Source: Phoronis australis (taxonomy: Eukaryota > Animalia > Phoronida). Taken from it: 34,739 nt of DNA. Shown one piece after another: positions 1 through 24,821 of the stretch. The stretch is from contig NMRA01000180.1 in assembly GCA_002633005.1 (NCBI GenBank), positions 1-34,739 of the forward strand, written 5' to 3'. The notes under the pieces were generated by a model. That model was not told the DNA's origin, made no database searches, and was given only the letters and a program-made list of their open reading frames with translations. The translations under genes and the position numbers were made by a program. Positions within the stretch are counted from its first letter, which is position 1. Every line of letters begins with the position of its first letter.

Positions 1-105
1 AGGAGCGCAGAAGAACGTGCACAAATCCTGAACCCGCTCATGGCGGCACAAGCTGTAATGGGAATAATACTGCAACCCAAATATGTTTTCTCCAACATTG
101 TCCAG
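1..105 (+). CDS. 3' end of a TSP1-repeat exon of the upstream TSR gene copy (partial)
   Basis: Translates ERRRTCTNPEPAHGGTSCNGNNTATQICFLQHCP, then a phase-1 donor (ccag|gtttg at 105/106). The exon end and the following intron are homologous to 16412-16570. Confidence 0.85.
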
Positions 106-318
106 GTTTGTTTTCGATTAAGTAAATTACGTTGTTTCAAAAGACTGGGTTATTGGATAATTTAAATGTTGAGTTCCAAGAAGTCTTTTTGTTTTTAAGA
201 ATAGAATTGTTTTATGCTAATTGAAAGCAAGTCCGAAGGTTGTTCGTCGAATTTTAACCGAAACTAATAAAACGTTGGGTTGATGTTGGTGTAAACATTT
301 AACCACCATAATTTTCAG

Positions 319-489
319 TGAATGGAGGTTGGAACACTTGGAATAGGTGGGGTGCGTGCAGTGCGACATGTGGTGGCGGTGTGCAGGTCAGGAACCGCAC
401 TTGTAATAAACCTGAGCCCCAGTACAACGGAACAGACTGCGTTGGTGCTGGTTCCGAAATTCTCGGCTGCAATTTCCATGATTGTCCAG
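319..489 (+). CDS. 171-bp single-TSP1-repeat exon (upstream TSR gene copy)
   Basis: ttttcag acceptor at 318 and ccag|gtaaaa donor; phase 1-1; VNGGWNTWNRWGACSATCGGGVQVRNRTC...CP. Paralogous to exon 16758-16928. Confidence 0.9.
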
Positions 490-644
490 GTAAAATGTTG
501 CTACTCATCAGTCGAAACAAATCGCAATTTCTTTTTGAAATTGTCTTAACTATGTTGTTAGCACACCATGCGCTGTAGATTTTCAACAAAATGTCTTCAA
601 CTATTCGCTTTTGAAGTGAATGCATTTTTGTATTATACATGTAT

Positions 645-839
645 TTGACGAGGTGGGAATTCTTGGGGATCATGGGGAGATTGCGCACTAAGTTGTGGAG
701 GAGGTCAGCAGTTGCGTACATACAGAAGGATGTGTACATTACAAACCCTACTCCCTCCCATTACGAGGAAGATTGCAAGGGACAAATTATCCTGGCTCCG
801 ACAAAAACTAACGAGTCTGAAGCACTCTTAACTGTAGAT
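645..839 (+). pseudogene. Decayed chimeric TSP1 pseudo-exon
   Basis: The AG acceptor is lost and there are frameshifts. The 5' part matches exon 17096-17266 (NSWGSWGDCALSCGGGQQLR...TNPTPSHYEEDCKG). The 3' part (cctggctccgacaaa...aactgtagat|gtaaatatt) matches the end of exon 13895-14065 and its intron. Confidence 0.75.
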
Positions 840-1031
840 GTAAATATTGGCATTTATTACATATTTTTTAATTTGATAAAATGTTATCTTTTTGCATTTT
901 TATGTATTAGCGTATGGCATACTTAAGGTACATTCATACTTTATGGTGAAGTGAAGAGGGTGGGATAGAAAAGTTAACTTATAACCTCGTCATACTTAAC
1001 AAAGAACATGATACAATCAAAATCATTTCAG

Positions 1032-2749
1032 TTGACGGCGGTTGGGCTGACTGGAGCCAGTGGTCGGACTGTTCGACGTCGTGTGGCAAGGGTAACGAAA
1101 GTTCAAAAAGAACCTGCTCTGATCCTGCACCCGCTCATGGCGGGCGAGGATGTGTTGGGAAGGAGACGAGAATCAGGAAATGTAAGCTGATGGAATGCCC
1201 TGTAAACGGCGGTTGGAGTCAATGGAGCTACTGGGGTCCGTGCTCTAAATCGTGCGGGGAGGGTACACAAACCAGCTCCCGAAACTGCAGCAACCCGTTG
1301 CCAGCCAACAGCGGGCTTGACTGTGTCGGAAACAGTACGAGAACAATTTCTTGCAAACTGAGCGAATGTCCAATAGATGGCGTATGGACGGCTTGGTCTG
1401 AGTGGAGTTCTTGTTCTCAGAAGTGCGGAGATGGAATCAAGAGGAGCTTCAGGAATTGTTCAGATCCAGAACCACAGCATAATGGGCTATATTGTCCAGG
1501 AGATAACCAGCGAAATCGGTCATGCGTAATCAAAAACTGTTCAATAAACGGAGGCTGGAACTCGTGGNTAAATGGGTCTTGGAGTGTCTGGGCTCCATGG
1601 ACCGACTGTTCGACAACATGTGGTGGCGGAGTGCAAAATCGAACGAGAACGTGTACAGACCCAACACCAAGATTTGGTGGGTGGAACTGTAGCGGTAATA
1701 ATTCAGAAATACGAATTTGTGGATTAATAAACTGCCCCGTTAACGGAAGTTGGGGACCTTGGAAAGAATGGGGTCCCTGTTCCTCTTCTTGTAGTCAGGG
1801 CCTGCAAACTAGGAGCAGACTTTGTGACAGCCCAGAACCATCGTTTGGAGGTAACAACTGTTCCGGTAACTATACTGCAGTGCGTTCGTGCATCGTGAAA
1901 CATTGTCCTGTTGACGGCGAATGGGAATCTTGGAGTAACTGGGGTGGATGTTCTAGAACTTGCGGTGAAGGTATGCATTTCAGATTCAGAACATGTGGTA
2001 ACCCTGCGCCACAATACGGGGGACGAAACTGCTCTGGGAACGATACCATGGCACAACAATGTATCAAAAAGCACTGTCCAGTCGATGGAGGATGGACGCC
2101 ATGGAGTGGGTGGGGTACGTGTTCTAGTAAGTGCGGCGTAGGGGTGCAGGTCAGAAACAGAACGTGTATAAATCCAGCGCCAATGTATGGAGGACAAAAT
2201 TGTTCCGGCAACAATACTATAACACAGGTGTGTTTCTTAAAAGACTGTCCCGTAGACGGAAAGTGGTCAGCTTGGAGTAACTGGGGGAAATGTTCCAAAA
2301 CTTGCGGTTCAGGTGTACGTGTGAGGAATAGAACATGTGACACTCCTGCACCGGAATATGGTGGAAGAAATTGTTCTGGTAACTCTACGATGATGCAGTC
2401 GTGCTTCGTAAAACATTGCCCTGTCGACGGATGTTGGGAGGATTGGAGTGAATGGGGCGCATGCTCAAGAACCTGTGGTGAAGGGATTCAGGTCCGGAAT
2501 AGAAAATGCAATCGCCCGGTACCAACGTATGGAGGGCGCAATTGTTCCGGCAACAATACTTTGACACAATCGTGCCTCGTAGCACACTGCTCAGTCGATG
2601 GAGGTTGGGGGGCTTGGAGTGAGTGGAGTGCGTGCTCAACAAGTTGTGGCGCAGGTGTTCAAGTCACCAAAAGAAGATGCGATAACCCTGCAGCAGCTTA
2701 CGGTGGACACAACTGTACAGGTAATGGCACTGACACAAAATTATGCTAA
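1032..2749 (+). CDS. Large multi-TSP1-repeat exon (about 11 repeats) of the upstream TSR gene copy; ends in TAA inside the last repeat
   Basis: tttcag acceptor at 1031; open frame of 57-aa WxxWxxWxxCSxxCG...RxRxC repeats. The N at 1568 stands where the paralog 14294-16516 has about 150 bp more. TAA follows KLC. Confidence 0.85.
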
Positions 2750-3170: not shown

Positions 3171-3231
3171 AATCATAGCTGTTGTTTTCCTGATGGGAAG
3201 ACCATCGCTGACTTTTGATTTTCAGACGGGA

Positions 3232-4487: not shown

Positions 4488-6732
4488 CTATAGATGCTCC
4501 TTTAAATGTTCAGGGTACTGTAAATTTGCAGAATTAATACTGTATTTATGAGATTAATACACAAATATCTTAAAATGTGTAAATGATTTTGTCAGTCTCA
4601 ATATGGCGTGGGAAACATTCTGTAAACATTCTATATCCCGTCAACACGCCATCTGTGCGAGGGGAAGAAGAGACAGATTGCCGTATTCGAATTAAGGGTT
4701 AAGATAAGTAGGACCCTGTCACGTGACCCTGTTGACAGGTCTGTGTGATTAACCGAATATCCACAAAACTATAAATTTTAACTGAGTAAAACTATAAATA
4801 TCCTGTAAGTAGATAAACTGTAGAATGTTATTTTTGAATTTTTACCAATGTATTATTAAATGAGTCACGTGACTACGACTTTTAGTTGAGTTAAGTTCAA
4901 AACGTATCAATGACATGATCACAATCATGAAAATCACATAAGTCCTATTTTTACTGTTCCCCGTGCAAAAGAGAAACAATATAAAAGCATTTTATAACAG
5001 CGTTTTAGAGAACAGTGCATCAAACATACTGCCTGAAAATTTCATATGAATTCGATCTGCCGTTTCTGAAATTTCATGTCTCGGAGTCTGGGCATTTTTG
5101 TAGGGTCTTACGGTAGTACATTAGTTATTGAGCTAACACAACTTGCATCGCTTTTGTTGTTCTCCGGACATATTAACAAGCGTGGGACAATGCGCGCACG
5201 TGTACGGAGAATGAGAACGAATTACACCAGTACTCTAGAGGATCGTTCCAGTTCCGTATTCAGTCCTAGTAAACACTTGTGTATCTGCCACTTTGGCATG
5301 AAGTAAAACATTACCATAATTCATCAGACAAAGGCAAAACAATTTTTTTCGAGAGTGCTATTTACAAATACTGGCATAGCTTTCCGACTTACTCGAAATG
5401 CTAGCGAAGTGTTTATAGCGTTTGACTTACTATTGACCAGGTCGTCACTGATTAGATAAAGGCAATGGGACGCATATCCACAGAGTAGTGACACAATACC
5501 GCCACATATTGCTTGAGTGAATTCCACGCGCACCGTACTTGGCAACTGACAGGTAAGATGCATTAAAAGATTGCCCGTGATTTCCATTTCTCATGAACAC
5601 TTTGTTTGCCAAAGTCACCCATTTCTTTGAAGCATCTCAAGGACAGCGGCTTCCTTTTACCTTTTTTGTCTTATGTGATTTTGCATTTTTGTTAGATTAG
5701 CGAGTTGGTCACGCGATATTTATAAGGTCTTGTTTCTATATTCACGAGATCATAACACTCTTTATTTACGCTTCGCACAAGTTCATCAATTAACTGAATT
5801 TTCTATATTTTGGATTTTTGGTCGAATAGACATACGGGTGGCAAGTAAAACGAAACAGACCACAAGGCGGTGTTTGAGGTAGAAACATTGGTCAATCTCA
5901 AAGAAAGCGGTATGATTCTGATTATTTCTGTGTACAGTGTTTTTGTTTTTGGTGTTATTGCTAATTGAAAGAAAACAACGATTAGCACACTGTCTTTTAT
6001 TCCAGTAGAACATCCTCTCGATCGGTCTTCATTATTGATGGAGTGATCCAAGCATGAAGCGACACCTGGCGCTAATCTTCGTGATTTTGACGTGTGGGAT
6101 AGCATTGCGTAAGTTGCCATTTTTATCGGGCTTGTTCCACATTGTTAGCTGGTTCTATCATCCATCTACATGTATGTTTCATAAACTCACTCTCCTTTTC
6201 TGCACAGGACATTGAATAAATCTTTGGAACGATGGCACTACCTGTTGAGACAAGAGGTTTTATTATTTTATGATAAGGGCGTTGTTCGCGAAAGTTTACT
6301 GGCTACTGAGGTTATTCAAAGCAGTAAAGCCTCACGTAGGCCGACATGAGGTGCTCGGAATATGTTTATATCGAACTTCAGTTTCAAGAGGGTAGATTAT
6401 TGTATTTGTCTTTGGACAGTAAGCACCACAGAGCATGACGTGATTTCTTGTGGGCCAGCTGGAGTTTCACCTCCGTTGTATATCCTTGGTTGGTGATAAC
6501 GGGTTTCAGAATACATGTACTGGAACAAGAAGCGAGTCCTTATTCTCGTGGCCCTGACTTATGACAAGACCTTCAAAAATTCTCAGCTGCGTTCCGTAGA
6601 CATGCACGATAATGTGATCACATGCTTCGATCGTAACGCATGGCAATATCTCGCTCTCGAAGACTTGTGTGATCAAGCTTATTTCTTGCATATATGGAAC
6701 CGGCGGAAACGTGGCAACCATATCAAGAAGGT

Positions 6733-6853
6733 GCGTGTGTGTGTACACATATGCCTAAATCAAGTATGTACACATACACGCACGCGCTCACAAAGGCACT
6801 CATACGCGAACACACGCAAACACACACGCACACGCACACACACACACGCACAC
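6733..6853. repeat. (CA)n/(CACG)-type microsatellite
   Basis: gtgtgtgt then cacacgcacacgcacacacac tracts. Confidence 0.85.
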
Positions 6854-7611
6854 AATTATATATGCTGTATTACTGGCTAATTAAGGTTTCTAACAGCACT
6901 TGCCTTCTACTTTCGGAGAATATATAACTTTCATTTCCTTAAATGCAATGGTGTTGTATACATGTATACCTGACTAAATTAGCAGCTCCAACATAACTAT
7001 CAGTTTGTTTTGCGTGCTCACAATGTACAAAAACTTTGTCTCAGTAGGCCATATTGAGTGCCATCCTTTGCCAGGGCATTGTTTTCGGTCAAGTTCTGTA
7101 ATGGTATCCCTTTAGAAGCCGAATGCGCTTGAAAAAAAGACTAATGCGGAGTTACGAAACGCCTCTTAAGGAATTTTTTTAGGCTACGGAAATTCCCGAA
7201 CTATTAGGGATGCAGGTGTTGGCGCATTTGGAACCCTTCAAATATTTTCGTAGCTTAAATTTTTAGGTTACAGCAATACCTGCTGAGACATTCCGGTTTC
7301 TGTCGATAATTAACCCGTAAATAACGACCCACGGCCACCCAAGCATTGACTCAGGGATCAACTGAAATAGAGTTGACGATGTTAGCGTTCTGTCGCGAAT
7401 TCATTAAGGCCAAAGTTGGCAATAATGTACTTTTTCTAGAAAAACAATTTTCGCTCAAATGTTTTCTCACATGTGTACATGTACATGTATGCATACTAGC
7501 CTAACTTCATAAAGGCAAAGTTTTATTCCATGCAGCATATGCCTCTTCTAAGTCTGACTGTGACATGTTTTAATTGCATTTGATAAGTTGAGTTGTCCTC
7601 CTATTTTGCAG

Positions 7612-9995
7612 ACGCCGAAGCGTATTACGTCGTTTACGTTAAAACGTCGGATGACTGGTTCTCAGGCACAGATGCCCACGTGGACATTAAGCTCTACGGC
7701 CACCTCAGAGAATCCGGGACAGACTGGATTAACTTGAACACGCGAAATCACAACGACTTCGAAAGGGGAAGGTACTGTCACTGAAAGGCCGAAACTTAAA
7801 CGTTATTATCCTTATACAAAATATTCACTTAAAATGATACTAAACCCTGCTTTGAAGAGTTTAGCCAAGTTTAGTTCTGTTACTTGCTCATTCTTGCTCA
7901 TTCCCCATTCCGGCTGATATGAACAGAACCGACAGACGGATTACGATAAAACATGACACAGAGGTACGCAATGTTATTTTGCGAACACCAGTCGATTTTC
8001 GAAGGCATTCGAGTACTGAAGCACCTCCTAGTGGCTATGTTGAGGAAGAATATCTTTTGAACCGATAGATAAATTTTAGTGAAACTTGACACTGGGGTTT
8101 GTGATGTCAATGCGCGATCACTATTAAATTTTTGCGCCATTGTGTTTTAATGTGTTGTGTGGGGAAAATCTGATTGGATAATATTTAAAACACGATTGTT
8201 TAATGTCAACTTAACTTATGTGATGTCACTGCGCCGATTTTTTTGTTTTCGACGTGGATTTGTCAACTGCACTATTGTGACAAGGAGGTTTTCAAAAGTT
8301 GTGTGGGGAATTCTCTAGATGGTATCTAGAGAACCGATTGATGGGTATCAATAAATCTTAATAGTATGTGATGAGAATGTACTGACACCATTTTGCTCTG
8401 ACTCGACAAAAGTTGTGTAGCGTAAGGGAAGAGCGTTTCCCGATTTTATCTAGATAACTGCACGAGTAACTCGTAGATTTTAATGAAACTTGAATCAACA
8501 TTAAATGATGACAATACGACGACACCGTTTGATTTTCGGGCTGATTCTATGACTGCAGCACCTCTTAATGACTCTTATAAACATAGCGTGTGCGATGCAC
8601 CATGGGCTCATGTCAACGCTCCCGCGTTGTCCGTTATTCAATTCTTTCTGGGGAAGAACTTGCACAGATGATACGTGCATCTATCGACAAAGAGGTGTGG
8701 GACTGCATAGCAAGGCGTCCAGTCGGTATTCGGGTAATTTTTACCCCTTAGTTGAAATTCTGTCCTGTTGTCCTCTCAGCTGTTGATAACTCGAACATCT
8801 TATCGTAGTTTGACACAAAAGTGTAGGGCATCGCAAGAGCGGTGCATGTCAGTTTTTACTTTGTGTTTTCCCCAAGGATGAAGGGCTGGGCTTTTTAGTA
8901 ATTTGGAGAAATTTGTTTCCAGATGATCTGTAAAGAACTCGTCCACGTAATTCAATGAAAATGTGGAAAATTGTGAACGCTTTTACATTAAAGCTACCGT
9001 GTGCGATGGGTTGCTTGTCTTCAATTTAAGACCCTTCCATTTTGCTCTCTTATGTTTATGATTTTGTTGTTCTTCTTAGCACCGACGCCTTTTATATTGC
9101 TGAAGATTACGGGATCATATTCAACATCGAATTAAGACACGACGACGCTCATGCGGGCGCAGACTGGAAACTCGAGACAGTGAGTATGGATTTGACCAAA
9201 ATGTGCTAGGCGTCTGTAGAAATGATGTCTTTATAATAATGTACATGGTTGCAACCATAACGCTTAATCATCGTGAGAGACCGTCCGGAGTTGGTGCAAC
9301 TCGGGACGGTCTGTGGTCTACAGTTCAACTGTGAGTCTACACCAATGTGATAAACGAGAGTAGTTCTACTTGCTGTGGCAGCTGCTGGTATGCTTATCTC
9401 TTTTATGGCACACAATGTGTGACTGGGCAAAGCGTTTTCAAAATAATGTGGATAAATCAGTGGAGTGTGAGACCCCTGAGGTCCCTGTTAAGTCCTCACG
9501 GCAATTTTACGTTATGACAGATTTCTACAATTCTGTGAACACAAAGAGATGTCCACCAAGGTAGTAGTACCAATCTTAATCAATAGTTTTCTTCAGAGAT
9601 GTTCAGCAGTCCGTTTGATGAACGAAGCCTATTGGCTCTGACATAAGAAGATGCCATTTTAGTTCGCAGTCGCCTCGGCCATGTCTCTAAAGTGTGGGTC
9701 AGCACAAGAATAAACCAGCAGTATCCAGGCGAATTCAACTTGTGCGGTCATAAACGTTATATTGCTTCTGTCCTATCCCGGCATGCTTTACAATCAAAAC
9801 TGATCTATTAACTTGTCGTCCGCCGGTATCCTGCTTTGCTTGCAAGGGCAGACAGGCCAAACATTATTGACACTATTGATGTTTCCGTATGACAGGTGAT
9901 CGTTATGGACTACAAACGATCGCATACACAATACCAGTTCCACTGCGATTGCTGGATAGAAGAACCTAACCCGTACAAAATTTTAAGAAGGAGCG
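7612..9995 (+). CDS. PLAT/LH2 domain exons (7612-7771, 9080-9179, 9896-9995)
   Basis: AEA-YYVVYVKTSDDWFSGTDAHVDIKLYG...NDFERGS|TDAFYIAEDYGIIFNIELRHDDAHAGADWKLET|VIVMDYKRSHTQYQFHCDCWI matches the PLAT consensus (YxVxVxT..GTDA.V.I.LYG, FERG, HD....W.L..V, F.C..W). Confidence 0.88.
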
Positions 9996-12900
9996 GTAAG
10001 TTAATGCACTTGGCTTTGTTTAGCATACTGAAAACGGAAATCATTCTTGGTCTTTTCCTCTTATAAAATTGTCTCATAACATACGTTACTGTTTCCGTTA
10101 CTAAAACGAAGTCAAACAACCAGTAACTCGAGAAAACGTTTCGTTGATAACTGAAATTTGAAAACACATTGCCTGTATAAGTGAATTGCCTGCTCATTCG
10201 GCAACCATCAATTCAAGATCGGATGAGAGTTATACAAGCCACAAAGAGATTCGGATAACACTTCAACACTGACATCGAAACAGCAGCAAAATGTGCCCCT
10301 TTAACAATTAAGAAGCAGTTTGCTTTCCTTCCATCTATGCATGAAACACCAAGGATCATTTCAGATCTGAGTCTAAAATATAGTCTCTGAATTTAAAAAC
10401 CGACTTGAACGTTTACCAATTTTCTGGTGTATTTCAAATAAACTAACAAAATTTTGCGCTCAAATCATGCAACACAATTGGTTACTTAAAAATACGAGTC
10501 CAGTCTGTGTTCAAAGATTACACTATAGAGAAAATCCGCTTTATTTCCTTGCTTCCAAAATCACTTAAATGTACAAAGAGAAAATATGTAAAACAAGAAC
10601 GAAAATCGTTGATTACACAAAACTATTTAGCATTATACACGTGTACTTCGTTTTCGACCTGGATTTTATTTTTAACGGCAGTGAACGGTGGATGGACCAG
10701 CTTCGGAGGCTACACTCGATGCTCCACAACTTGCGGCACTGGTAGACAGACCAAACAGCGATCTTGTACCAATCCAAAGCCTTACAATGGCGGAGCACAT
10801 TGTAGTGGCCACAGCATTGAAACCAAGTCGTGTTTTACAAAGAATTGTCCAGGTATATTCATAATACCAGGAATTTAATGTCTTCCTGATATATATAGAT
10901 TATTACATGGCAACTAGCCTCGGCTTCGTAACTACTTTTTATGTCAGAGGCCCTGGGTCAGAGGTGGTGACCTTTTAAGAAAATCCGAGTTATTTTTGTC
11001 AAAATAATGTTTTTACTCAAAACCAATTGAAAATTTAAACAAAACAGACAAAGAGAATCTATAAATTAAGGTTTAGCGATAATTATAGCTTACTACACAT
11101 TATATTGCGCTAAGCATCGAGCGGGAATATATCGTCTGCTAAATTAAGTTAGCCTACCACTGGTTGCTGAGTACATGTATAATGCCCAAGTCAAAGGACG
11201 ATATCAATGGACGAATGCGGGTGCCGTGAACCGACGACACGATACCCGAATTCAAATTGGAGATCCATGATTCACAAGTAAGAAAAAATGAGAGGTAATG
11301 TTAATTAAAATGTTGTTTTTAAGGAAATTATGCGTGTTATTTTTCATAGCGTCAAAGTGTCTGTAAAATGCCCTTTGTTGATGTCACGTTCGATGACTGC
11401 TGAGTGGTGCAGTGGTAAAGTAAACGACTCGAAACTCTTGCACCGGCCTCAGTTTCCCGCCAACATGTTATTTAACGCCGTTTTTGACGGCTGCATTGGC
11501 CATTCCAGACTGATATTGTGGTATAACACTTCTTTTACCACCATATTAGCCTCGAATGGCAGATACAACCGTGTAATAACCCATAAAGTTATCTCACTAG
11601 TGAGATAAAATTTTGGCGGGAAACCGAGGCGGGATTCGAACCTGGGCGTCAACAGTTGCGAGTCGCCGACTTTACCACTGCACGTCGAACGTGAAAATAG
11701 AATACTTAAATGAGCACGCGCAACAATCCCATGTTCAGCAAAGGGCATCACAGTTATACGCTATGAAAAATAAGACGCAAAATTTCCATAAAAACGATAT
11801 TTTAATTCACTGGAATTTTTCACTCGAGTTCTCTCACTTGTAAATCACCGATCTCCAATTTGAATGCAGGTGTCGTGTGGTCGGGATCCTTTGACTTGAG
11901 CATTATAGTCAGTTACTAGTGGTAACCTACTTTAGCAAACGGTATGTGCCCAGAAGAAAAATGTCGTCTGAAATAAGCATTATATGGACATCTAAAAATA
12001 CTTATACGTGTACGTCTGTTAACTCAAGTCATGTTATTATAAAACGATTACGTTTGCAAGCTCCTCGGGTACGAATTCTTCGAACACTGTACACGTACCT
12101 TTAAACAGTACACACCATGGATTTTTGCACATTTTGAATTACCGGTGGCCACAGACTAAATGTATGACGTAAAACTTAGCTAAACCCATGTTTACTTTGT
12201 GTAATTAGCTCAAAATTTTGATTTTTTTTTTCAATTTTGCCAATTTTCACATTTCCCGCCATGTGACGTCATGGGTTGAACACAAGAGATCAGTGACTAG
12301 CATTGAACAATGGCGGAGACCAGGGAATTTGAAAGTGACGACGATTATGAGCAAGAATTGAACGAATACTATGAAGAAACGTATGAGAATGGTGGCCAGG
12401 ATGAGGAAATGGGGTTGCACGAAAGCGAGAACAAGTTTAATGTGCTTCCGGCTGCGTACTTTTCTACTTTGAGCCTTATGAACTGGATCCTCCCGCGAGA
12501 GAAGCGGCCTCGGGCTCGACGAGTCAACCCAGTCATCCAACAGACGATCCTGAATTAAGAGCTGATGTTTCTGAATGATAAATATTGTCCTTTATTGAAA
12601 CAGGCCTTCATCGTCTCCTGTGACTGGAGTCGAAACACGAGTCCTCAAAGTGGGCAGAACACAGAGTGGCCCCGGACCGAATCGCTTGGTCCACGATGAC
12701 GTCCCACACTCTCGTTCGGCGCACTAAGTCATGCCACTTCTGCGCAACTTTGGTGTCCTTCGGAACACTGAGACGTTTTCCGCCTGGCTGCTGTTGCTGC
12801 AGCCTCCGGAAACACATCTTTTGATCCCTCTACGAACCTTCTCGACGCTAAATGTACTTTGCATTCTCTTCACTCTATACGCTTTGTCTCTGATCCGAAC

Positions 12901-15900
12901 GGTATGGCGAACGACCTGGGTTCAACCCATGACGTTGAACATAATTATTATTTTTTTCAATTTTTGCGTGTTTCTTTATGAGCTGTGCACTATAAGCACT
13001 GAAATCAAGTAAGATATAATAATAAAATTTATTTTTAGGTACATGTTGTGTACACTTTAAACCTTTGCTCTTTAATATTATTGTCAACCTTCACTGTCTT
13101 AATCAAACGTTTTAAGCCTGGAGGGGACAAAATGTGAAATTGTGGACTTGAAATGAGTAAACAACCAGGAGGCACTTTGCAATGAACATGATATCCAAAC
13201 CCAAATTGATATATGAATTGCCATTGGGGGGGAGTAGTTTTTGTAATAAACAGGGGTCCACGCCCCCGTTGTATCCCCCATATCGCTCCCCCGGTGGCTT
13301 CTTCTGGTCCTTAAACCGATGATATTGTTGCGAGATGTTTTTTATTTCAAAATTAGTCAATAATTCCATCAGCCATGCAATTTGATGGCGGATCCATAAT
13401 GTAGCTTTGTACAAGATTTCTGGAAGGACTTCGGAAAGCTACATGTACTTTAAAAGTGTCGCATTCAGGTTCCCAACTGTCTGTATTACGATAGTGTTAT
13501 TCTTGGACTTTACGAGACGCATGATTTTCTATTTAACATATTATTCCTTCTACTAGCTAAGCAGTACAATTACAAGGAGAGATGTCACAAAAATATACCT
13601 AATTTTCACCAGTTCATTACATATACTTATAAGTACTATAATGCTGAAAAATTAATTGCATATAAAAACTTTGTATATGACAGCTTCTCTTCGAAATGGG
13701 AAAATTTAATTGTTCATGTTAACTACATGTAAAAGATATTTACTTTAAACGAGATACGAGAATGGTCTTCCTGAGGTATGCGTGAACGAATGGTGTACTT
13801 ATTTGTTTGTTTGTTTTTGTAATTGCTTTGTAAAAGATAATAAATACCTTAAAAAAAGAATTTATATACTGTTCTTCGTTGGTACATTATTCAGTTGACG
13901 GAGGCTGGAGCGCTTGGTCAGATTGGCCTTCATGTACAGTGCACTGCGGCGGAGGTACGCAAACACGTGTGCGCACCTGTACAAATCCTCGACCTGCTTA
14001 CGACGGCTCAACATGTCCTGGGTCTGACAAAGAATCACGTGACTGTAACACTCATAACTGTAGTGGTAAATATTCACTTTCATTACATGTTTTGATGATT
14101 TGAGATTTTAGTAATCTTAAAATGTTGTCTCCTTGAAACCTTTATGTAAGAGTACTGTTCATTTACATTTCATTCAAGCGACGAATGGAAAAATACCATT
14201 TTATAAACGCATTGGAATACTAAGTTAACCTAAAACATCATTTGAATAGTGTGCCATTATACAATGTACATGTAATTATAAAAATTATTTTAGTTGACGG
14301 TGGGTGGACGGACTGGAGCCATTGGTCAGACTGCTCGACGTCGTGTGGCAACGGTAATGAAAGTTCAAGTAGAACGTGTACCAATCCTGCACCCGCCCAC
14401 GGCGGGCAAGGGTGTCTTGGGAACGAGACGAGAATCAGGAAATGCAAACTGGAGGAATGCCCTGTAAACGGCGGTTGGAGTCATTGGAGTGACTGGGGTC
14501 CGTGCTCGATATCGTGTGGGGAGGGTACACAAACCAGCTCGCGAAACTGCAGCAACCCGTCGCCAACCAACAGCGGGCTTGACTGTGTCGGAAACAGTAC
14601 GAGAACAATTTCTTGCAAACTGAGCGAATGTCCAATAGATGGCGTATGGACGGCTTGGTCTGAGTGGAGTTCGTGTTCTCAGAAGTGCGGAGACGGAATC
14701 CAGAGCAGCTTCAGGAATTGTTCAGATCCAGAACCACAGCATAATGGGCTATATTGTCCAGGAGATAACCAGCGAACCCGGTCATGCATAATCAAAAACT
14801 GTTCAATAGACGGAGGCTGGAACTCGTGGAATCAGTGGGGCACTTGCTCCACGTCTTGTGGAGTGGGTAATCAAACAAGACATCGCAAATGTACCAATCC
14901 TCTTCCAATGTTTGGAGGGCAGGATTGCGTAGGCAATAACTCAACAGTCAGAGAGTGTAATGTTAGAGACTGTCCAATAAATGGGTCTTGGAGTGTCTGG
15001 GCTCCATGGACCGACTGTTCGACAACATGTGGCGGCGGAGTGCAAAATCGGACGAGAGCGTGTACAAACCCAACACCAAAATTTGGTGGGTGGAACTGCA
15101 GCGGTAATAATTCAGAAATACGAATTTGTGGTTTAATAAACTGCCCCGTTAACGGTGGTTGGGGACCGTGGATCGAATGGGGTCCCTGTTCCTCTTCTTG
15201 TAGTCAGGGCCTACAAACTAGGGGGAGATTCTGTGACAGCCCAGAACCATCGTTTGGAGGCAACAACTGTTCCGGTAACTATACTGCAGTGCGTTCGTGC
15301 ATAGTGAAACATTGTCCTGTTGACGGAGAATGGGCATCTTGGAGTAACTGGGGTGAATGCTCTAAAAGTTGCGGCGCAGGTATGCAATACAGATTCAGAG
15401 CATGCGTCAACCCTGCGCCACAATACGGGGGACGAAACTGTTCTGGGAACGATGCCATGACACAACAATGTTTCATAAAGTACTGTCCAGTCGATGGAGG
15501 GTGGACGCCGTGGAGTGGGTGGGGTACGTGTTCTAGTACCTGCAGCGTAGGGGTGCAGGTCAGCAACAGAACATGTACGAACCCGGCGCCAATGTATGGA
15601 GGACAAAATTGTTCTGGTAACAATACGATGTCTCAGGTGTGTATTTTGAAAGACTGTCCCGTTGACGGAAAGTGGTCAGCTTGGAATAACTGGGGGGAAT
15701 GTTCCAAAACTTGCGGCTCAGGTGATCGTGTGAGGAATAGATCATGTGACACTCCTGCACCGGAATATGGTGGAAGAAATTGTTCTGGTAACACTACGAT
15801 GACGCAGTCGTGCTTCGTAAAACATTGCCCTGTCGACGGAGTTTGGGGAGACTGGAATGAATGGGGCGCATGCTCAAGAACCTGTGGTGAAGGGATTCAG

Positions 15901-18900
15901 GTCCGCAATAGAATATGCAACAACCCGGTACCAACGTATGGTGGGCGCAATTGTTCCGGCAACAATACTTTGACACGGTCGTGCCTCATAGAACGCTGCT
16001 CAGTCGATGGAGGTTGGGGGGGTTGGAGTGAGTGGAGTGCGTGCTCAACAACTTGTGGCGCTGGTGTTCAAGTCAGCGATAGAACATGCAACAACCCCGC
16101 TCCGGCTTATGGTGGACGTAATTGTTCCGGGAATGACAATGCTACAAAATTTTGCAATGTTATTGAGTGCCCCGTTGACGGCGGCTGGACATCTTGGAAC
16201 GGTTGGAGTTCATGTTCACTCTCATGCGGGACGGGAATGCAATATAATGCAAGAATGTGTTCCAATCCTGTCCCGGCTCACGGGGGAAATAATTGCACAG
16301 GAAACGACACAGTCACACGGGAATGCCATCTCACTCACTGCGCAGTCGATGGTGGATGGACCTCTTGGACGGGTTGGTCGTCGTGCTCTGTGACCTGCGG
16401 AAACGGTGGACAGCATCGTAGCAGAACGTGCACAAATCCTGAACCTGCTTATGGCGGCGCAAACTGTAGTGGGAATAATACTGCAACCCAACCATGTTTT
16501 CATCAACATTGCCCAGGTTTGCTTTCTATGAAGTAAATTACACTGTTTCATACGACTGAATTACTGGTTTTATAGAATCATGCGGTTTACTTAAATTTTG
16601 ATTCCATGACGTCGTAAACGAATTCCTAATTTTTTTTGCTGTTTTGAAAACAGGTTTGATTCTTGTTAATCCATTTTAACTGTAACGTACAGAAATGTTC
16701 ATTGATGTCGTGTATGATTTCAACAATAATTTCAAGTATTTGTGAACGTTCTTTTAGTGAATGGAGGTTGGAACACGTGGACTGGGTGGGGAACGTGCAA
16801 TGCTACCTGTGGCGGTGGTGTTCAGGTTAGGAACCGCACTTGCAATAAACCGGAACCACAGCACAATGGATCTGATTGTGCTGGCGATGGTTCCGGAAGT
16901 CGCAGATGTAATCTTCATAATTGCCCAGGTACACTTTTGCTTCCTATCAGTCTAAACAAATCGCATTTTTTCTGAACTTTTGTAACTATTTTATTAGTAC
17001 ATCACGTGCTGTGCAATTCAACAAAATGTTCATGTCTGCGTTTTTGCAGTGAAATATTGCAGGTTTTCGCAATTTATTCGCGATTCACATTTCAGTTGAT
17101 GGGGGTTGGAATACTTGGGGGTCATGGTTCGACTGCACCGTTACTTGTGGAGGAGGTTATCAGTTACGTAATAGGACATGCACAAACCCTATACCCGCCC
17201 ATAACGGGGAAGATTGCAAGGGTCCAAAAGTTGGTTATCGGGATTGCAACACTAACAATTGTCCAGGTAAGATGTATGCACGTGGACCATCTTTACACTG
17301 ATTGGGTCAAACGCTACGTTCTTATTTAAAGAAACCAAATTATTTGATGTAACTGACCAAATCAAACGTACCATAAATAGAACTTCGGTATTCCATATGT
17401 TAAGTAGCAAATATGGTTTCTAATAAATGTATTACGCTCGTTCTTCTTAGAACCTGTTCGATCGTTTCCACTGTCGTCAACCAATAAGAAAAATCCAGTA
17501 ACAGTGCATTCGCAATTTTCATCTTTGTATCATAGTGGGTTAAAACTAAACATAACGGTAAACAATATGGCCGTGTTAATTGTATTTATAGTCAACGGAG
17601 GTTGGAACCAATGGAGCGACTGGTCGCACTGCTCAACTTCTTGTGGGGGAGGTTATCAGACGACGTCGCGGAACTGCACAGACCCAGCACCTGCGTTTGG
17701 GGGAGGTTTTTGCTCAGGAGAAGACACTCGGAATCAAACCTGCAACTCACATCGATGTCCAGGTAATTTGTAGTAAGATAATGTATTTGAAGCCCACTGA
17801 GCCCATTGTAATTTAGAATGCTCGCAAGGGAAATTACCTAGTTAGATAAGGTACTCTCTTAGAATGCAAGCTGATTTATTTGTCGAGAAGACTTGCATGA
17901 CTTGTAAATTTACAAACCGCTAAGTTTATGGAACGATGCAGTTGTTGTATTCCCTTATTGAAAAGACGATATCAAATCAAGCGCGAAACCAAAGCCAGTG
18001 GAATGTACAAGCCGACACTGCAGCTTTGGATTAAGCGAAGGTTTAGACAACCAGCAAAGCCACCATTGTTGTTATCAGGGATCACTAATACTGTAGCTGA
18101 CGAATTAGTCCCATCCCATGTCCGCGTGCACGCTAAATCCTTGGACAGTCCAGTCAAGTAGCTGACGGATTAGTTCCATTTCAAACCCGCGTGCACGCTA
18201 AATCCATAGACTGTGTAGTCAACTTTAAATTCCATGTGCTTTAAAACAGCCATAAAACCTGTTTGCAACTTATTTAGAAATGAATGCCCTACCTCCACAT
18301 GGTTGGCTTTATTGTGCCTCGCGGAAAACTAAGATGTCGCAAGCCCGTCGCATAGATGTCGGTATATAGGCGTATCCAAGTTACATTTTTCATCACCAGT
18401 GGCGGATGTAAGGGGGGAGGGAGGGGGCCATGCCACCCCAAAAAAAAATTCTCCCAAACTCCATTTGGCAGTTCGGTGGTCCGAATGTCTAACATACAAA
18501 ATCCTGGCTAATACTCTGCCCTGGCCCCAAAATCCTAAATCCGCCCCTGATCACTTTAGCTTTTCAATTTTATTTGTTGTCTTTACATGTTCATGTCTAC
18601 CGTACATATATACGTGTACTTCGATTCTTTGCCGACCCTACTCATACAGTATATGCAGTATAACGTCGTATAGAAAGTAGAGAATATGTATAGAATGAGA
18701 TTGATCTATTGTAGGACTCGCCCGGTTCTCATGAAAAAATCTGAGGTTGCGTAAAATGAAAATGAAACATTTTAGAAAACTGTAACTTACGTTTATGAGA
18801 TCTCATACTGAACACATAAAAATAAAAAATGGACATGTTATCGATACCGTTGTTTTGCTTTCAATGTACCTTTCCTATTTGCTAAATACTACCAAATAGA

Positions 18901-21900
18901 CGTGGTCACGTAAACAAAGGCTTGCAACTTTGTTTCAGTCGATGGAGGTTGGAACGCTTGGAGTGGCTGGTCCAATTGCTCACAGGAGTGCGGCGGAGGA
19001 CAGCAACATAGGTCACGAGCATGCAATCAACCGTCACCGGCCCATGGGGGAAAGGTCTGCGACGGACATCCTCTCGCCATTAGGGAGTGCAATACTCGCA
19101 ACTGCTCTGGTATGAGTGATAAAGCCAACACCTAAACTTAAGATTGTTTAAACAGGTTTCTTAGCTGATTACACCAAAGACGGTTGGGGGTCTTATATTT
19201 GACACGTTCATGCACTTTCCCCATTTTCTAGTCGTTTAACTGAACATCTTGTCTGCATCTACTCGTCCAATGGCTGAAAGAAGATCGATATTAGATTTCC
19301 TTTAGTATCTGTTTTAAACGGTTCTTTACATTCACATTCTGTACATAGTCTTGTGAGTTGGTTTGGACCATTTTCTGGTCTCAACTCATTCTTAACACTG
19401 ATTGAGATTGAGTTGTAGGCATGGAAATTTGTTTGTTATTTCTTGAGGTCATGGTTGTTTCATAACCTTCTCACTCGCAAATAGTTGTTGATTCGCGGCA
19501 GGCATCATGTTTGTTAGACAGGTTACATGTGCCCAGTAAATAGATAATTGATAATACCTACTTAGTGAAATCTAATATTCGTTTTCATTGCTGAGCATGC
19601 ATTATGAGTCGTCTGCTTCAGAATCCAGAAAGTGTTAGGCAAACGTCTGCTCGGCAAACTGGAAGCTGATGCTAGATAAATGCCACCCATATTTTCCAAT
19701 CTGTGAAAACCGAACTTCCGGATGTTTAAAATACTGCTCGTGACATAAAATGTACTCGAATACCTACACCTGCAGGAGGTACTGCTCGCGATGACCGCCG
19801 GACCAAAGTTACATGTACGTGTGTTTATTATGTTCCGTACTGCATACTACATGTCTTTCAGTTGACGGAGGATGGAACGACTGGTCTACTTGGAACCCGT
19901 GCACGGTTTCGTGTGGAGGAGGTCACCAGACTCGAAATAGGACATGTACACCTCCGCTGTTTGGTGGGATGGAGTGCGAGGGATCGAATGTTAGCACTCA
20001 AATCTGCAATATAGGCAGTTGTCCCGGTGAGCAGGAATATTCTTTGTTTAAATTTGGTCTCCATAGGCGATTTTAAACATTTAACTGACGTTTGCCCTAC
20101 AGTTCCAACGTAAGATTGTAAAATAAGTGCAATATCGCCTTTCTAATTAAAATGGATATTTAACCCGCTTTTCATCACTAAAAACACTTTTGATTCAGAC
20201 TATTCTTGTCGTTATAAAAACTTGTCCGCAAGTGTTTTGAGTCAAACTAAGGATGACACGAGGCTTCGAAAGAAAAGGATTGTGTCTGTGCGTCAACTTG
20301 TGCTTCTATCATGGTTTCAAGAAACAACGAACTATCGATTGAGTACGAAAAATTTGAGGCCAATTAAGAGGGTTCCTTCGTCAAAGTCAAAAGTTTGCTT
20401 CTATAATGAAACGCCGGTAAATTCTTTTTTGAATTGAAGTAGATGTCTAACTTCCTGATTACACCAAATTTCAATCACAGAAATGAAGGAAACCCATTTG
20501 CTCATCAAATACCGACATTGTGGCGTGGATAACAATATAATTTTTGAGTCTTTTGAAGTCCACGTACATGTATTTGGTGAAAATAGATGAAATTCAATGG
20601 CTTTGCTGTTCAATCGTCTGTTATCAGTTGATGGTGGATGGACTCATTGGACAACATGGGCCTCCTGCTCAGTGTCATGTGATGGAGGTCAAATATCAAG
20701 GTCAAGGTATTGCACCAATCCACAACCTGCACATGACGGGAAAGACTGTGATGGTGCAGGCGTGCAGACGGCAGCATGTAACCCTCACATGTGCCCCGGT
20801 GAGTCAGAAGCGTTTCTTTTTCTTTTTGTAGCGTCTCCTCCCTTATGAAAACCTAGCGTTGGATGCAATCCAACAGCATCCAGAGGAGAAATGTTTATAT
20901 CACGTTCATGACGTGACTTGCGATTAGGATATTTTATCTTAACGTTCAGAGATATGAAAGCATTTGACACCCGCAATTGAAATCACCCCGAACTCAACAA
21001 ATAACAGCGTACATGTGTAAAAGTTAGGTTTTGGTAAACTTGATTCCAACACTGACCAATTACAGGACGTGCTTAGAGTAAACTTTCAGATACACTGTAT
21101 GAATTATTTCTTTGGCATGATTGGATAACTTTGAAAGTAAGAGTCGCATTTCACTAGGAAATTGTAGATTAGAACCTGAGCGGTGGTTGAGGGACAACTT
21201 ACGAATTTACATCTATTTACGAGGTTGGCAGCTTTTCCGACGATGAAGTTTCCAGTGGAATGAACATAAGGCTTTGTGAATTTTTCTAACGCATTACACA
21301 TGATTGCTTTTCTAGTCGATGGTGGTTGGACAGAATGGAGTACTTGGACGGTGTGCTCTCTGACATGTGGTAGAGGGGAAAAGGCAAGAAACCGAACGTG
21401 CTCTCAACCCGTTCCACAGTTTAATGGGACAGATTGCCAGGGAAATTCAATTGAATCACGTGAATGCAATTCGCATATGTGTCCAGGTTAGCTCGTTTGT
21501 TGATGCATGATCTTGCTTTTTCGTATCCAAGTTTAGATTTCTGCTAGAATGGTTCCCTCACTGACTATTTTGATATTTGATACATGACAATAAATATTTT
21601 ATACAAGTCAACATGAAGTCAAATAATGGTACAAGTTGATTGTGATCAGTATTTTTCAAACACATAAACTTCTCTTGACCTCCCTACATATGGCTTTGCT
21701 TGGTTGTGTTTCCTTGCAGTCAATGGGGGCTGGTCATCCTGGTCCAGATGGAGTGCCTGCACATTAACATGCGGTAGCGGGCAGAAGACGCAGACAAGAA
21801 CTTGCACTCAGCCCCCACCGCAATATGCCGGGAAAGAGTGCGACGGAAACGACCTTAACTCCACAGAGTGTAATACTCAAGCATGCCTTGGTAAATCAGA

Positions 21901-24821
21901 AGTGTTGGCTTTTTTTTCTTCTACCCGATCTATCCGATACTTTCATACATGTAGGTTGTCATGGTCTTTTGTTACTGATTGGTAATTCTACTTTTACCAA
22001 AAATAGATTCTAATTGTATAAGACTTTGGAAAGTAGACGGTGAAACTACTAAGAGAGTACTTACACTTTTATAAGACATAGGTCGGGCAGGTACTAGCGC
22101 CAACTGAAGCTAGTTGGAACTCTGGCTGCGAAATAAAAATGAAATGTTTACCTATCTCTCGTCTCCAAATTCAGTAGGGTTATCAAAATCTGCCCTTAAC
22201 CGTTCATCACTCAATCATCTTTAACCTGACCAACTTTCTGATACCACCTCTGTCATTACGAATCTTCTCCGTCATTCCTGACATTTCCCAACAATTTTGT
22301 CAGGTACCCGCATTTCATCTGTTTTGGGTGTTTAATATCCCACACCTCTCCGGGCTGCGTGGATTTCGGTATCACCGAACCTAATACTGAAAAGCTTGCA
22401 GAGCAAATAGTTCTGATTTTAACCCAGAAGCTGTCTGAGCTTTGTATGTCTACCGATAGCACATACCGACCTGCGTACTTATTATCCTGTAGATGGTTGG
22501 GGCGAGTGGAGCGCGTGGTCACCGTGTTCTGAGAGCTGCAATGGAGGGTACAGGATACGACAGAAAGAATGTCACTCGCAGTGTGAAGGGGTTGGCAATG
22601 AGACGGAAACCTGTAACACTCAGGGATGCCCAGGTAACCCCCTTACATCGCGTGTGAATTAACAATGAATTTCCATTCTACTTATCCACTTGATATGGTA
22701 TCATGCAGCAGGTCATTTAAATTGGAGTGTGTTTAAATTGCAATAACATGAGCAACAGTACGTCGTACAAAAATAAAATGTCAGGTTTGATTTCTTTAAT
22801 TTCACGAAGGATTATACTGAAATTCAGTGTGTTTTGCTTGATTTTTTGTTTGAAGTCAACGGCCAATGGGGCAAATGGTCGGGCTGGTCAAAATGTAGCC
22901 AGACATGTGGAAAGGGTGAGCAGCAAAGACTGCGTCGCTGTGACGATCCTTCAACATCTTCCGGTGGAACGGATTGCAAAGGAGGCAATATTGAAAAGCA
23001 GGAATGTATAATCGAAAAGCTGTGCGAGAAGAAAGCGATTGCAGGCGATTTTGACAAATCACAGGCATCTGCGCAGGATAAGACAGTAATGATGATTGCC
23101 CTATCATCAACTGCTGGAGTAGTGTTTGTGGCGATAATTGTCATAGCAGCGTGTATTGTTTTTGCAAGGTGAGTGCAACGCTACTTACATGTACATGTGC
23201 ATCGAAATTTTTGCCACACGAAGAGATATTTTATGGCTCATCAAGAACGCCACCCACAAGCACACAAGTACGCGGTTCAAACAAAACCTTTTTCACACGC
23301 AAAGACTTTTTTCCAAGCGCCAGTTTAAATACAAAGTCATCGTGGTACGTAGCAAAGGTGTTTGCATATAGTTTTAGTTCAACTTTCGTTGTTAGGGTTC
23401 TTTCCACTCTTGCTAATCAAAATATGAATTTTCATTCAATTCGTCATTTGCAACGTTAACGATTTGTCGTAAGAACTATGTTATTGAAGACGAGGTTAAA
23501 CAATAGGAGCTGGACTGCTATTCAAAGACGCCTTTGGCAATAACAGATTCATGCACGAGCATGAATACCCTGAGAAGAATATCGACAAGGACACGACAAG
23601 TGTACCCTCCCACACGAGAACGGTATTTCAAAGAATATCACCAATGTTTTCATCAGTCATGAAGCGCGTACTTACCACCACATCACCGCTCTTCACACAA
23701 GAACAAAACACCTGGCACAAAAATGAGGTGTGATCTACAAGATAGAATGCCCAGAATGTCCGGCTACTTGAATTAAGGAACAGCTTGAAAGAAAGCAACA
23801 ACTTTTCAAAAATGTATCGACATGTCGGTAGTTGTTGTCTTTAGTCAAACTTTACTAGCGTTCGTCAGTGCAAGATGTTTCGGTAAGGAACACACGTGCA
23901 AAAATGTTACTAGTCTTCCCACAATGGAAGACCATAGTGATTCGACTCTCACAGTGTTACACCTGATAATGTGACTGTAATTGCATCAATTACACCAAGT
24001 ACAGTTTGACAGTACTTTGGAATGTTGTTTTTCTGGTGTCTTACTTCTGACGTGGATCCCACAGTTATATAGTTTCCACGTTCCCCTGAAACTCCAACGA
24101 ATTTTGAAAACTGGACATAATGAACTTCACATGCACCTGGCACTGCATACGGTTATTGTTTTCATCTGTCTTCTCACTGGCAGTGTATTGATAATTTTGG
24201 ACTGTTTCAATAATTTACCTGTAGTTCGCGATTCCTTCGTCCATTTGCCGATAGCAGCATGGATGCAGTGCCATTGTTGTCTCTTGGAAGACTAGACAGA
24301 GTTACGGCTTTGCGATCCAGAGCATTTCTTGGTTTTAGGTTCAGTACGACAATGAAGGCGACTACTATTTTGACCGTCATAAGTATTGGCTGCATTTGGC
24401 AGTAAGGATGTTTTAGTTCTGGCGTATACGCATGTATGTTCATGGTCTCATGCTGTATTTCAGGAGGAATTCAAGGAAACGGAAGAACGCTTTACGCGCG
24501 AGAAGCGAATTTGAGGACTATGCGTCACACAATCCCACCTACGATTCAATGTTTGACAATGCCGGGGCACACAGCGAAGAAAATGTTTACGACTATATTA
24601 ATAACCCAGCGGGGCTCCATGAATCGGACAACATTCGCAATCAACACGTGGTAAACGACTATCACAAGCCACCACTTGGAAAGGTCACCGTAGGAGCGCT
24701 ATTTCAACCAGCCACATTTTCCACTTTCACTGGCAAACGACGGTCTATGTCTGACGAACTTGCTGAGCAAGTGTCTTTAGATTATCATAACCCCACGTAC
24801 GTGTATATGAAGCCTGCATAA
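7612..24821 (+). CDS. PLAT domain + 25 TSP1 repeats + transmembrane helix + NPxY tail, type-I membrane protein (17 exons identified; 5' signal-peptide exon not found)
   Basis: Exons 7612-7771, 9080-9179, 9896-9995, 10682-10852, 13895-14065, 14294-16516, 16758-16928, 17096-17266, 17592-17762, 18939-19109, 19862-20026, 20628-20798, 21316-21486, 21720-21890, 22493-22633, 22856-23168, 24464-24821. All are GT-AG with compatible phases, summing to 5099 nt in one frame to TAA at 24819-24821. Confidence 0.85.
9400..9720 (-). mobile_element. Possible highly decayed non-LTR reverse transcriptase fragment
   Basis: Minus-strand fragments in shifting frames, RHGRGDCELKWH ... GLLNI ... GPQGSHTPLIYPHYFENAL, resemble RT motifs (GFRxGRST, GxPQGxxLSPxLFxxY) in the right order. 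Confidence 0.3.
11123..11951. mobile_element. Foldback / MITE-like element with about 340-bp inverted arms containing a tRNA-like segment
   Basis: 11123-11470 is the imperfect reverse complement of about 11605-11951 (e.g. ttcaaattggagatc / gatctccaatttgaa; caagtcaaagga / tcctttgacttg), with a spacer of about 135 bp. Confidence 0.8.
12310..12577 (+). pseudogene. Acidic N-terminal fragment resembling the Kolobok accessory (KolX / P2X7-ballast-like) protein
   Basis: MAETREFESDDDYEQE... then, after a frameshift, YFEPYELDPP...DPELRADVSE ending in tg|ataaat (probably a mutated W codon and GT donor). An acidic leader, YxFEP and R....W precede the Cys-rich domain in such proteins; that domain is absent here. 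Confidence 0.5.
12600..12864 (-). pseudogene. THAP zinc-finger domain, frameshifted and truncated (transposase N-terminus)
   Basis: MQSTFSVEKVRRGIKRCVSGGCSNSSQAENVSV/(frameshift)PKDTKVAQKWHDLVRRTRVW...LCSAHFEDSCFD carries the C2CH THAP signature with the conserved P, W and F. Confidence 0.85.
14294..16516 (+). CDS. 2223-bp exon encoding 13 tandem TSP1 repeats
   Basis: Exactly 13 x 171 bp; ttttag acceptor and ccag|gtttg donor; lies within ORF 14242-16536. Confidence 0.95.
18093..18222. repeat. 65-bp tandem duplication (2 units)
   Basis: gtagctgacg...ccgcgtgcacgctaaatcc...agtcaa starts at 18093 and again at 18158. Confidence 0.85.
18397..18549. mobile_element. 153-bp MITE
   Basis: TIRs cagtggcggat / atccgcccctg; 5-bp TSD ATCAC at 18392-18396 and 18550-18554; G-rich subterminal tract. 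Confidence 0.8.
22856..23168 (+). CDS. Exon with the last TSP1 repeat, stalk and transmembrane helix
   Basis: VNGQWGKWSGWSKCSQTCG... then hydrophobic VMMIALSSTAGVVFVAIIVIAACIVFA; donor ag|gtgagt. Confidence 0.9.
23540..23785 (+). mobile_element. Decayed Penelope-like retroelement fragment (GIY-YIG endonuclease start)
   Basis: From 23727, GVIYKIECPECPAT*IKE matches the Penelope GVVYxIxCxxCxxxYIGET motif with a nonsense change; upstream EYPEKNI resembles the NGYP linker. Confidence 0.6.
24464..24821 (+). CDS. Terminal exon: cytoplasmic tail
   Basis: Basic stop-transfer RRNSRKRK, NPTY twice, ENVYDYI, KRRSMS, then TAA. The phase-2 acceptor tttcag matches the previous donor. Confidence 0.85.

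Follow-up and report, generated by a model that had tools for sequence, protein, structure and literature searches.

Proteins with which a long TSR array may be compared differ in the domains that accompany their repeats. Hemicentin carries vWA, tandem Ig and EGF domains, SCO-spondin is secreted and contains vWD, LDLa and TIL/C8 domains, Semaphorin-5 has Sema and PSI domains ahead of its TSRs, the ectodomain of CED-1, MEGF10 and Draper is composed of EMI and EGF repeats, and the tail of TRAP has a sub-terminal Trp. The apicomplexan TRAP proteins join a vWA domain to TSR and TM (PMC5446238). CED-1, Draper, MEGF10, Jedi and stabilin are described as type I receptors with a long repeat stalk, and MEGF10 and Jedi have NPxY and other tyrosine motifs and bind GULP via NPxY (PMC5454446). 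The same source describes phosphatidylserine binding by BAI1 (ADGRB1) through its TSRs, and by TIM-1 and TIM-4 through a metal-dependent site in the lipid-binding head that they carry on a stalk (PMC5454446); BAI1 is a seven-pass GPCR that signals via ELMO/DOCK180. The invertebrate TSR arrays (Hydra HyTSR1, the mollusc, cnidarian and amphioxus 'SCO-spondin-like' proteins, and the Mytilus protein P0082) have dozens of six-Cys TSRs together with varied, shuffled heads.

The loops of PLAT domains confer Ca2+-dependent membrane binding, but not universally (PMC7436259, PMC10889196), and in the coral 8R- and 11R-lipoxygenases (PDB 2fnq, 3dy5, 3vf1) the domain is part of a cytosolic protein, in which it is joined to an enzyme and switched by Ca2+. 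Plasmodium offers an earlier example of a PLAT at an extracellular N-terminus: PfCCp3/PbLAP1 is described as having a signal peptide, then an LH2/PLAT domain and repeated adhesion domains; these are LCCL, SR and LamG domains and not TSRs, and the text consulted mentions no TM or tail (PMC10892792). Here we describe a Phoronis australis gene that is predicted to place an extracellular PLAT on a TSR array with a TM helix and a cytoplasmic tail. The window analyzed is the whole 34,739 nt stretch of contig NMRA01000180.1, which is intron-rich animal DNA of ~41% GC.

Gene structure and transcription

The gene is on the forward strand, and its predicted product of 1717 aa consists of a signal peptide (aa 1–22), a PLAT domain (aa 23–133), 25 TSRs (aa 139 to ~1551), a short linker, a TM helix (aa ~1575–1598) and a cytoplasmic tail of 118 aa. 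Seventeen in-frame exons within 7612..24821 had been proposed in a preliminary description, and these hold up: all have an AG acceptor, the 16 internal ones have a GT donor, the phases agree from exon to exon, and no stop codon interrupts the joined sequence. The proposed order of PLAT, 25 TSRs, TM and tail likewise agrees with Pfam and profile matches, motif counts and hydropathy. The gene extends further upstream than had been thought, with an exon at 6006..6108 that contains the ATG (6054) and the signal-peptide coding segment (6054–6108), and a 5′ UTR exon at 5440..5552 whose true start may differ; counting the signal-peptide exon, there are 18 coding exons. Residues 1–18 are hydrophobic, cleavage is predicted, as judged by eye, after the A-x-A at aa 20–22, and the phase-1 donor of this exon fits the exon at 7612. 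The exons and their domain order are real, and the single-gene model is a prediction, with RNA evidence of splicing among the UTR, signal and PLAT exons and of read depth on TSR1.

Three exons encode the PLAT domain: 7612..7771 (aa 19–71, with the DDWFSGTD and HNDFE loops), 9080..9179 (aa 72–105) and 9896..9995 (aa 106–138, ending in phase 1). TSR1 (10682..10852) and TSR2 (13895..14065) follow in separate exons, and 13 of the 25 repeats, TSR3–15, are packed in one exon of 2223 nt (14294..16516; 13 x 171 nt). The remaining repeats again have one exon each, those of TSR16 to TSR24 (16758–16928, 17096–17266, 17592–17762, 18939–19109, 19862–20026, 20628–20798, 21316–21486, 21720–21890 and 22493–22633) being phase 1-1, and TSR25 shares its exon with the short linker and the TM (22856..23168; TM at ~23095–23166). 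The tail is encoded at 24464..24821, with the stop codon at 24819–24821. Pfam TSP_1 matches support 16 of the 25 repeats, namely TSR1 (E=1.3e-9), 13 stretches of the large exon (E=8e-147), TSR24 and TSR25, and the other nine are assigned by motif only, in exons of fitting phase.

All TSR exons start in phase 1, and phase-1 introns likewise flank the PLAT block of three exons. By the exon-shuffling rule, boundaries of matching phase are expected of a shuffled extracellular module, and because the PLAT block has phase-1 introns on both sides we infer that it follows the pattern of such a module.

The RNA data cover 5400–12150 only and consist of reads from three stranded runs (X2, X3 and X4) and contigs of a fourth (X1). 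A GT..AG joint from the 5′ UTR exon to 6006 is seen in 12, 5 and 0 reads of X2, X3 and X4 and in one X1 contig, an X1 contig match ends at 6108, and reads join PLAT exon 1 to exon 2 (17, 7 and 1) and exon 2 to exon 3 (17, 2 and 0). The gene is transcribed, with the UTR joined to the signal-peptide exon and the three PLAT exons spliced together. The signal-to-PLAT and PLAT-to-TSR1 joints are not among the 15 RNA joints listed of 41. A form in which PLAT exon 3 runs on into a hydrophobic end was considered and rejected, as RNA depth stops at the end of the exon.

Expression over 5400–10852 differs more than tenfold among the three runs, which are from one study (X2 > X3 >> X4), and this suggests tissue- or condition-specific expression. 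Read depth is modest, ~10–23 per 1.8 Gb in the best run.

Domains of the predicted protein and their relatives

PLAT exon 1 alone matches Pfam PF01477 (E=1.2e-8, 36.1 bits versus a cut-off of 23), and the three joined exons align to profile positions 2–112 of 119 with 92.5 bits; the profile members were gathered with exon 1, and it is the second half of the domain that constitutes an independent test. By profile score the whole domain is covered and belongs to the PLAT/LH2 family. The closest solved structures to exon 1 are those of coral 8R- and 11R-lipoxygenase (best PDB match 2fnq, E=0.003), with which it has the GTD and HNDFE motifs in common. Unlike them, the P. australis PLAT is predicted to be extracellular and has no catalytic domain, and the second-loop W-F pair of 8R-lipoxygenase is replaced by R-N; an exposed W-F is present in the first loop. 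The GTD/NDFE motifs, which we take to be Ca2+ ligands, are general PLAT motifs seen also in multi-PLAT and bacterial proteins, and because they are so widespread they are no proof of lipid binding. From its sequence the head may be lipid-sensing or lipid-binding, and PLAT domains can also work via protein partners.

The PLAT is acidic (net charge −8), and the repeat next to it is atypical: TSR1 is divergent, has neither WxxW nor an N-glycan site, and has a net charge of +6, in contrast to the other 24 TSRs. Together the two form a small unit of ~175 aa. Among 3278 TSRs of related arrays, 157 are at +6 or more and 514 are without WxxW, and since such repeats are not rare the oddity of TSR1 is only suggestive of a part in a binding head. 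An analogy with BAI1 had also been drawn; it is a loose one, as TSR1 is the only strongly basic repeat, and the P. australis protein has one TM, 25 TSRs and a PLAT head.

The repeats themselves are typical of the TSR superfamily (PF00090), with six Cys in all 25, WxxWxxW in 24 and CxxS/TCxxG in 22. The ectodomain has 45 N-glycan sequons, and the O-fucose pattern is present in 22 of the TSRs. One TSR is ~5 nm long, and on that figure the stalk could reach up to ~100–125 nm. A fold of TSR8–11 gave a mean pLDDT of 68 and a pTM of 0.27, with one of five models above 50, and does not fix the relative positions of the repeats; the modeled four-TSR segment thus lends no support to a stiff rod.

Hydropathy peaks at 2.89 over aa 1580–1598, the only hydrophobic helix after the signal peptide. 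The tail has 8 Tyr in 118 aa, including NPTY at aa 1622 and 1708, YDSM, YDYI and YVYM; each NPTY runs straight into a YxxM, and there is in addition an acidic ENVYDYI site. The motifs used in shuffle tests were picked after the tail sequence had been seen, and with that reservation two NPxY arise in 69 of 100,000 shuffles (p=0.0007) and two YxxM at p=0.011; three YxxPhi are not above chance (p=0.18). NPxY is also used in integrin-type adhesion and in sorting. No Pfam or NCBIfam family matches the tail. A canonical ITAM was rejected, as the first motif ends in M, as was a TRAP-type tail, there being no Trp.

Searching with the large TSR exon gave 705 matches, of which the best 120 were examined. 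All of the statements that follow on TSR arrays refer to these 120. The best protein matches are cnidarian and molluscan with identities up to 50%, no close annotated relative of the repeats is among them, and their shuffled heads, by Pfam accession, include SEA, vWA, SRCR, PAN, MAM, CUB, CTL and astacin. None has a PLAT by Pfam lists or profile (0 of 120). A hydrophobic stretch follows the last TSR in eight and is lacking in 112; the tails of these eight contain no NPxY (0 of 8), and five are of 5 aa or fewer. The nearest in plan is Mytilus P0082, a partial record that also has 25 TSRs and, toward its C-terminus, a TM followed by a Tyr-rich tail of 122 aa, but no PLAT.

Searches from the other end of the protein gave a similar picture. 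A representative search with PLAT exon 1 returned 127 matches, mostly multi-PLAT proteins, a TSR profile found no TSR in 158 PLAT-side proteins, and a PLAT profile run on the 7994 best candidates had 25 matches, none with TSP_1. The Atlas search with PLAT exon 1 returned PLAT fragments only, and a weak search of exon 1 against longer proteins gave two candidates and no matches. No orthologue was found in these searches. Three small unnamed PLAT-only proteins were noted (P0220, P0226 and P0209, two with a signal-like start), for which a cluster look-up gave no useful names; they may form a family of secreted PLAT proteins from which the receptor head could have come. P0209 is a near copy of P0220 that ends where PLAT exon 1 ends, which hints at an intron position in common with the P. 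australis PLAT.

The literature gives no instance of the pairing in the texts consulted. Cnidarian surveys report many new TSR architectures (astacin, vWA, trypsin, ShK, Ig), with PLAT absent from the text (PMC5446238), shuffling of domains is given as the origin of coral TSP1 fusions (PMC4890752), the portions available of PMC3269628 and PMC6626399 add nothing on PLAT with TSRs, and ten supplementary files of a Nematostella matrisome (PMC12549020) contain no PLAT, LH2, IPR001024 or PF01477. Other supplements could list such an entry. The PLAT and TSR pairing was thus not found elsewhere in searches that are incomplete, and its absence is not proven. Marine invertebrates often have long TSR arrays with shuffled heads, which makes the stalk ordinary and lowers the surprise of the architecture, a point that had not been weighed before. 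The unusual part is an extracellular PLAT with phase-1 intron borders on a receptor.

The protein belongs to none of the hemicentin, SCO-spondin, Sema5, BAI, TRAP or CED-1 families. The signal peptide, PLAT, 25 TSRs and short linker fill the whole ectodomain, leaving no place for the domains of hemicentin; the vWD, LDLa, TIL and C8 domains of SCO-spondin are absent and a TM and tail are present; the N-terminus is a PLAT and not the Sema domain of Semaphorin-5; there is one helix and not the seven of the BAI/ADGRB adhesion GPCRs; and neither the vWA nor the tail Trp of TRAP is found. HyTSR1-type secreted arrays consist of TSRs only, and the PLAT, TM and tail set this protein apart from them. 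With CED-1, MEGF10 and Draper it has in common, by motif only, a tail with NPxY (two NPTY) and tyrosine motifs (YDYI, YDSM, YVYM). It has no EGF, EMI, FAS1 or Ig domain, its stalk is of TSRs and its head is a PLAT, and the likeness to CED-1, MEGF10, stabilin and TIM is an analogy of design and not homology. The preliminary description rightly warned against labeling the protein as hemicentin, SCO-spondin, Sema5 or BAI, the diagnostic domains being absent, and automatic 'SCO-spondin-like' labels hide distinct receptors. Its view that no named family fits is also consistent with the array, PLAT-side and literature searches, which, though incomplete, revealed no characterized family of this architecture.

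Candidate functions

Our leading explanation, offered tentatively, is that the gene encodes a predicted single-pass surface protein acting as a calcium-loaded, lipid-binding uptake or engulfment receptor. We rank it ahead of an adhesion receptor, a tethered component of mucus or matrix and, last, an artefact of two genes. A receptor had been suggested previously, and that reading gains from the two NPTY motifs; the uptake role would follow from sequence features. With the signal peptide directing it to the outside, the PLAT would meet millimolar Ca2+, its acidic loops would stay loaded, and it would be a standing membrane-binder and not a Ca2+ switch as in lipoxygenases. The acidic PLAT and the bare basic TSR1 could then act as a joint binding head for lipid surfaces, with dying cells, vesicles, lipoproteins and microbes as candidate cargo, and the 24 glycosylated TSRs would lift it ~100–125 nm, past the cell coat. 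Through the NPTY and YxxM/YxxI motifs, PTB-domain adaptors of the CED-6/GULP type, AP-2 and tyrosine-kinase signaling would be brought to the tail and the cargo internalized, and low endosomal Ca2+ might then set the cargo free. As to its origin, a TSR-array receptor gene likely acquired a PLAT module by exon shuffling.

If an uptake receptor is the correct reading, it would add a new lipid-recognition head to those of animal uptake receptors, and their design of a lipid head, a long stalk and an NPxY tail would have been built here from other parts. In a fuller proposal, an animal lineage would have made the PLAT, with which cytosolic enzymes dock to membranes under Ca2+ control, into an extracellular phase 1-1 shuffling module. 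The resulting receptor for engulfment or lipid uptake would owe nothing to CED-1, TIM or BAI; its head would combine the Ca2+-loaded PLAT with a basic TSR on a stalk of 100 nm, its output would run via NPxY, cargo would be released in the endosome, and the neighboring TM-less paralogue would act as soluble partner or decoy. Taken as a whole we consider this doubtful.

An adhesion or signaling receptor between cells or between cell and matrix, which we regard as unlikely though worth weighing, would have a PLAT that binds protein, TSRs that bind glycosaminoglycans or receptors, and NPxY motifs that engage cytoskeletal or sorting adaptors. The LH2/PLAT of PfCCp3 is extracellular in an adhesive protein described as attaching via protein partners (PMC10892792), TSR motifs are reported to bind GAGs and CD36 (PMC5446238), and EBR1, a long TSP1-repeat protein, is described as a sea-urchin gamete receptor (PMC13672419); loss of the aromatic loop pair of 8R-LOX points the same way. 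However, CSVTCG is present in only one of the 25 TSRs and no RGD was found in the predicted protein, the first PLAT loop retains an exposed W-F, and two NPTY each followed by YxxM fit uptake receptors.

It is rather improbable that the protein is tethered to the membrane as a component of skeletal matrix, cuticle, cell coat or mucus. In that case it would be a glycosylated polymer of TSRs that is perhaps shed, the PLAT would serve as an accessory anchor to lipid, and the paralogue would be its secreted form. The top match among the 120 arrays is HyTSR1, which has 48 TSRs and is reported from mucous gland cells (PMC4820225), shuffled TSP1 arrays are described in coral skeletal and anemone adhesive proteins (PMC4890752, PMC6626399), and the scarcity of hydrophobic stretches in related arrays, the >tenfold difference between X2 and X4, and a paralogue under purifying selection that ends without a TM are all in keeping with such a role. 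A 118 aa tail with two NPxY is needless in a passive coat protein, though, the TM-bearing arrays have no NPxY and mostly minimal tails, and the modest depth is not that of bulk secretion in the samples concerned. Were either the structural or the adhesion explanation true, the gene would be one more lineage-specific TSR array of modest interest.

Finally, fusion of two genes in the model, a short secreted PLAT (or PLAT and TSR1) gene and a separate TSR-TM gene split in the 3-kb intron 4, is highly improbable: no RNA joint crosses intron 3 or 4 among those listed and the RNA region stops inside intron 4, which contains a THAP fragment, nested inverted repeats and three AATAAA, the TSR2 acceptor is ordinary (17% of background AG score equally well), and stand-alone signal-peptide PLAT proteins are known (P0220, P0226), but the intron phases agree (1-1), the TSR1 donor is in the top 2% of background GT, the intron 4 content resembles transposon debris, and read depth is close to zero just past PLAT exon 3 and returns on TSR1. 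There, as rough bin means, it parallels that of the PLAT exons on the same strand (~12.7, 4.2 and 0 versus 14–23, 5 and 0 in X2, X3 and X4). A simple scan of introns 3, 4 and 5 (8, 71 and 7 ATGs) found no candidate for an alternative signal-peptide start exon, and the TSR-TM part alone would therefore be without a route to the surface.

Tandem paralogue and other features of the window

The 3′ part of a tandem paralogue occupies 1..2749 on the forward strand, its 5′ end being outside the window, and includes TSR exons, a dead exon (~652–830) that has lost its acceptor and frame, and a copy of the large exon. This copy is 91% identical in DNA to that of the main gene (dN/dS 0.30), a single TSR exon has a dN/dS of 0.12, and the repeats pair mostly one to one with those of the main gene's large exon. 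The reading frame has a stop inside the last repeat and no copy of the TM or tail was found within the window; the paralogue may encode a secreted form or be recently truncated. The block was also considered as an allelic copy and rejected, with 9% coding divergence and another exon order versus ~3% for RNA contigs. For 147 nt of the main gene the paralogue has only a single N, at 1568, which is probably an assembly gap. Between the two genes a segment of ~500 nt is directly duplicated (3229–3737 and 3985–4487, 95% identity); a single N immediately precedes the second copy, and the duplication may be an assembly overlap.

Two elements in intron 4 are likely non-autonomous transposons, one at 12266–12935, where 19-nt terminal inverted repeats enclose a THAP-domain fragment (E=2.7e-5), and the other a nested palindromic element at 11170–11910.

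A six-exon gene is present on the reverse strand (33983–33860, 32616–32501, 32350–32293, 32027–31882, 31019–30915 and 29964–29824), open throughout and with GT-AG introns. Queried as single exons it has no significant match in Pfam, NCBIfam, PHROGs or PDB, and the literature matches listed include no direct precedent for a bacteria-derived cell-wall hydrolase in an animal. In the product, the signal peptide precedes a stretch that resembles bacterial SH3 (Pfam SH3_5, E=0.068, which does not reach the cut-off), and then come H-x6-D and H-x-H motifs like those of zinc peptidoglycan peptidases of the M15/LAS type; it is possibly such a hydrolase.
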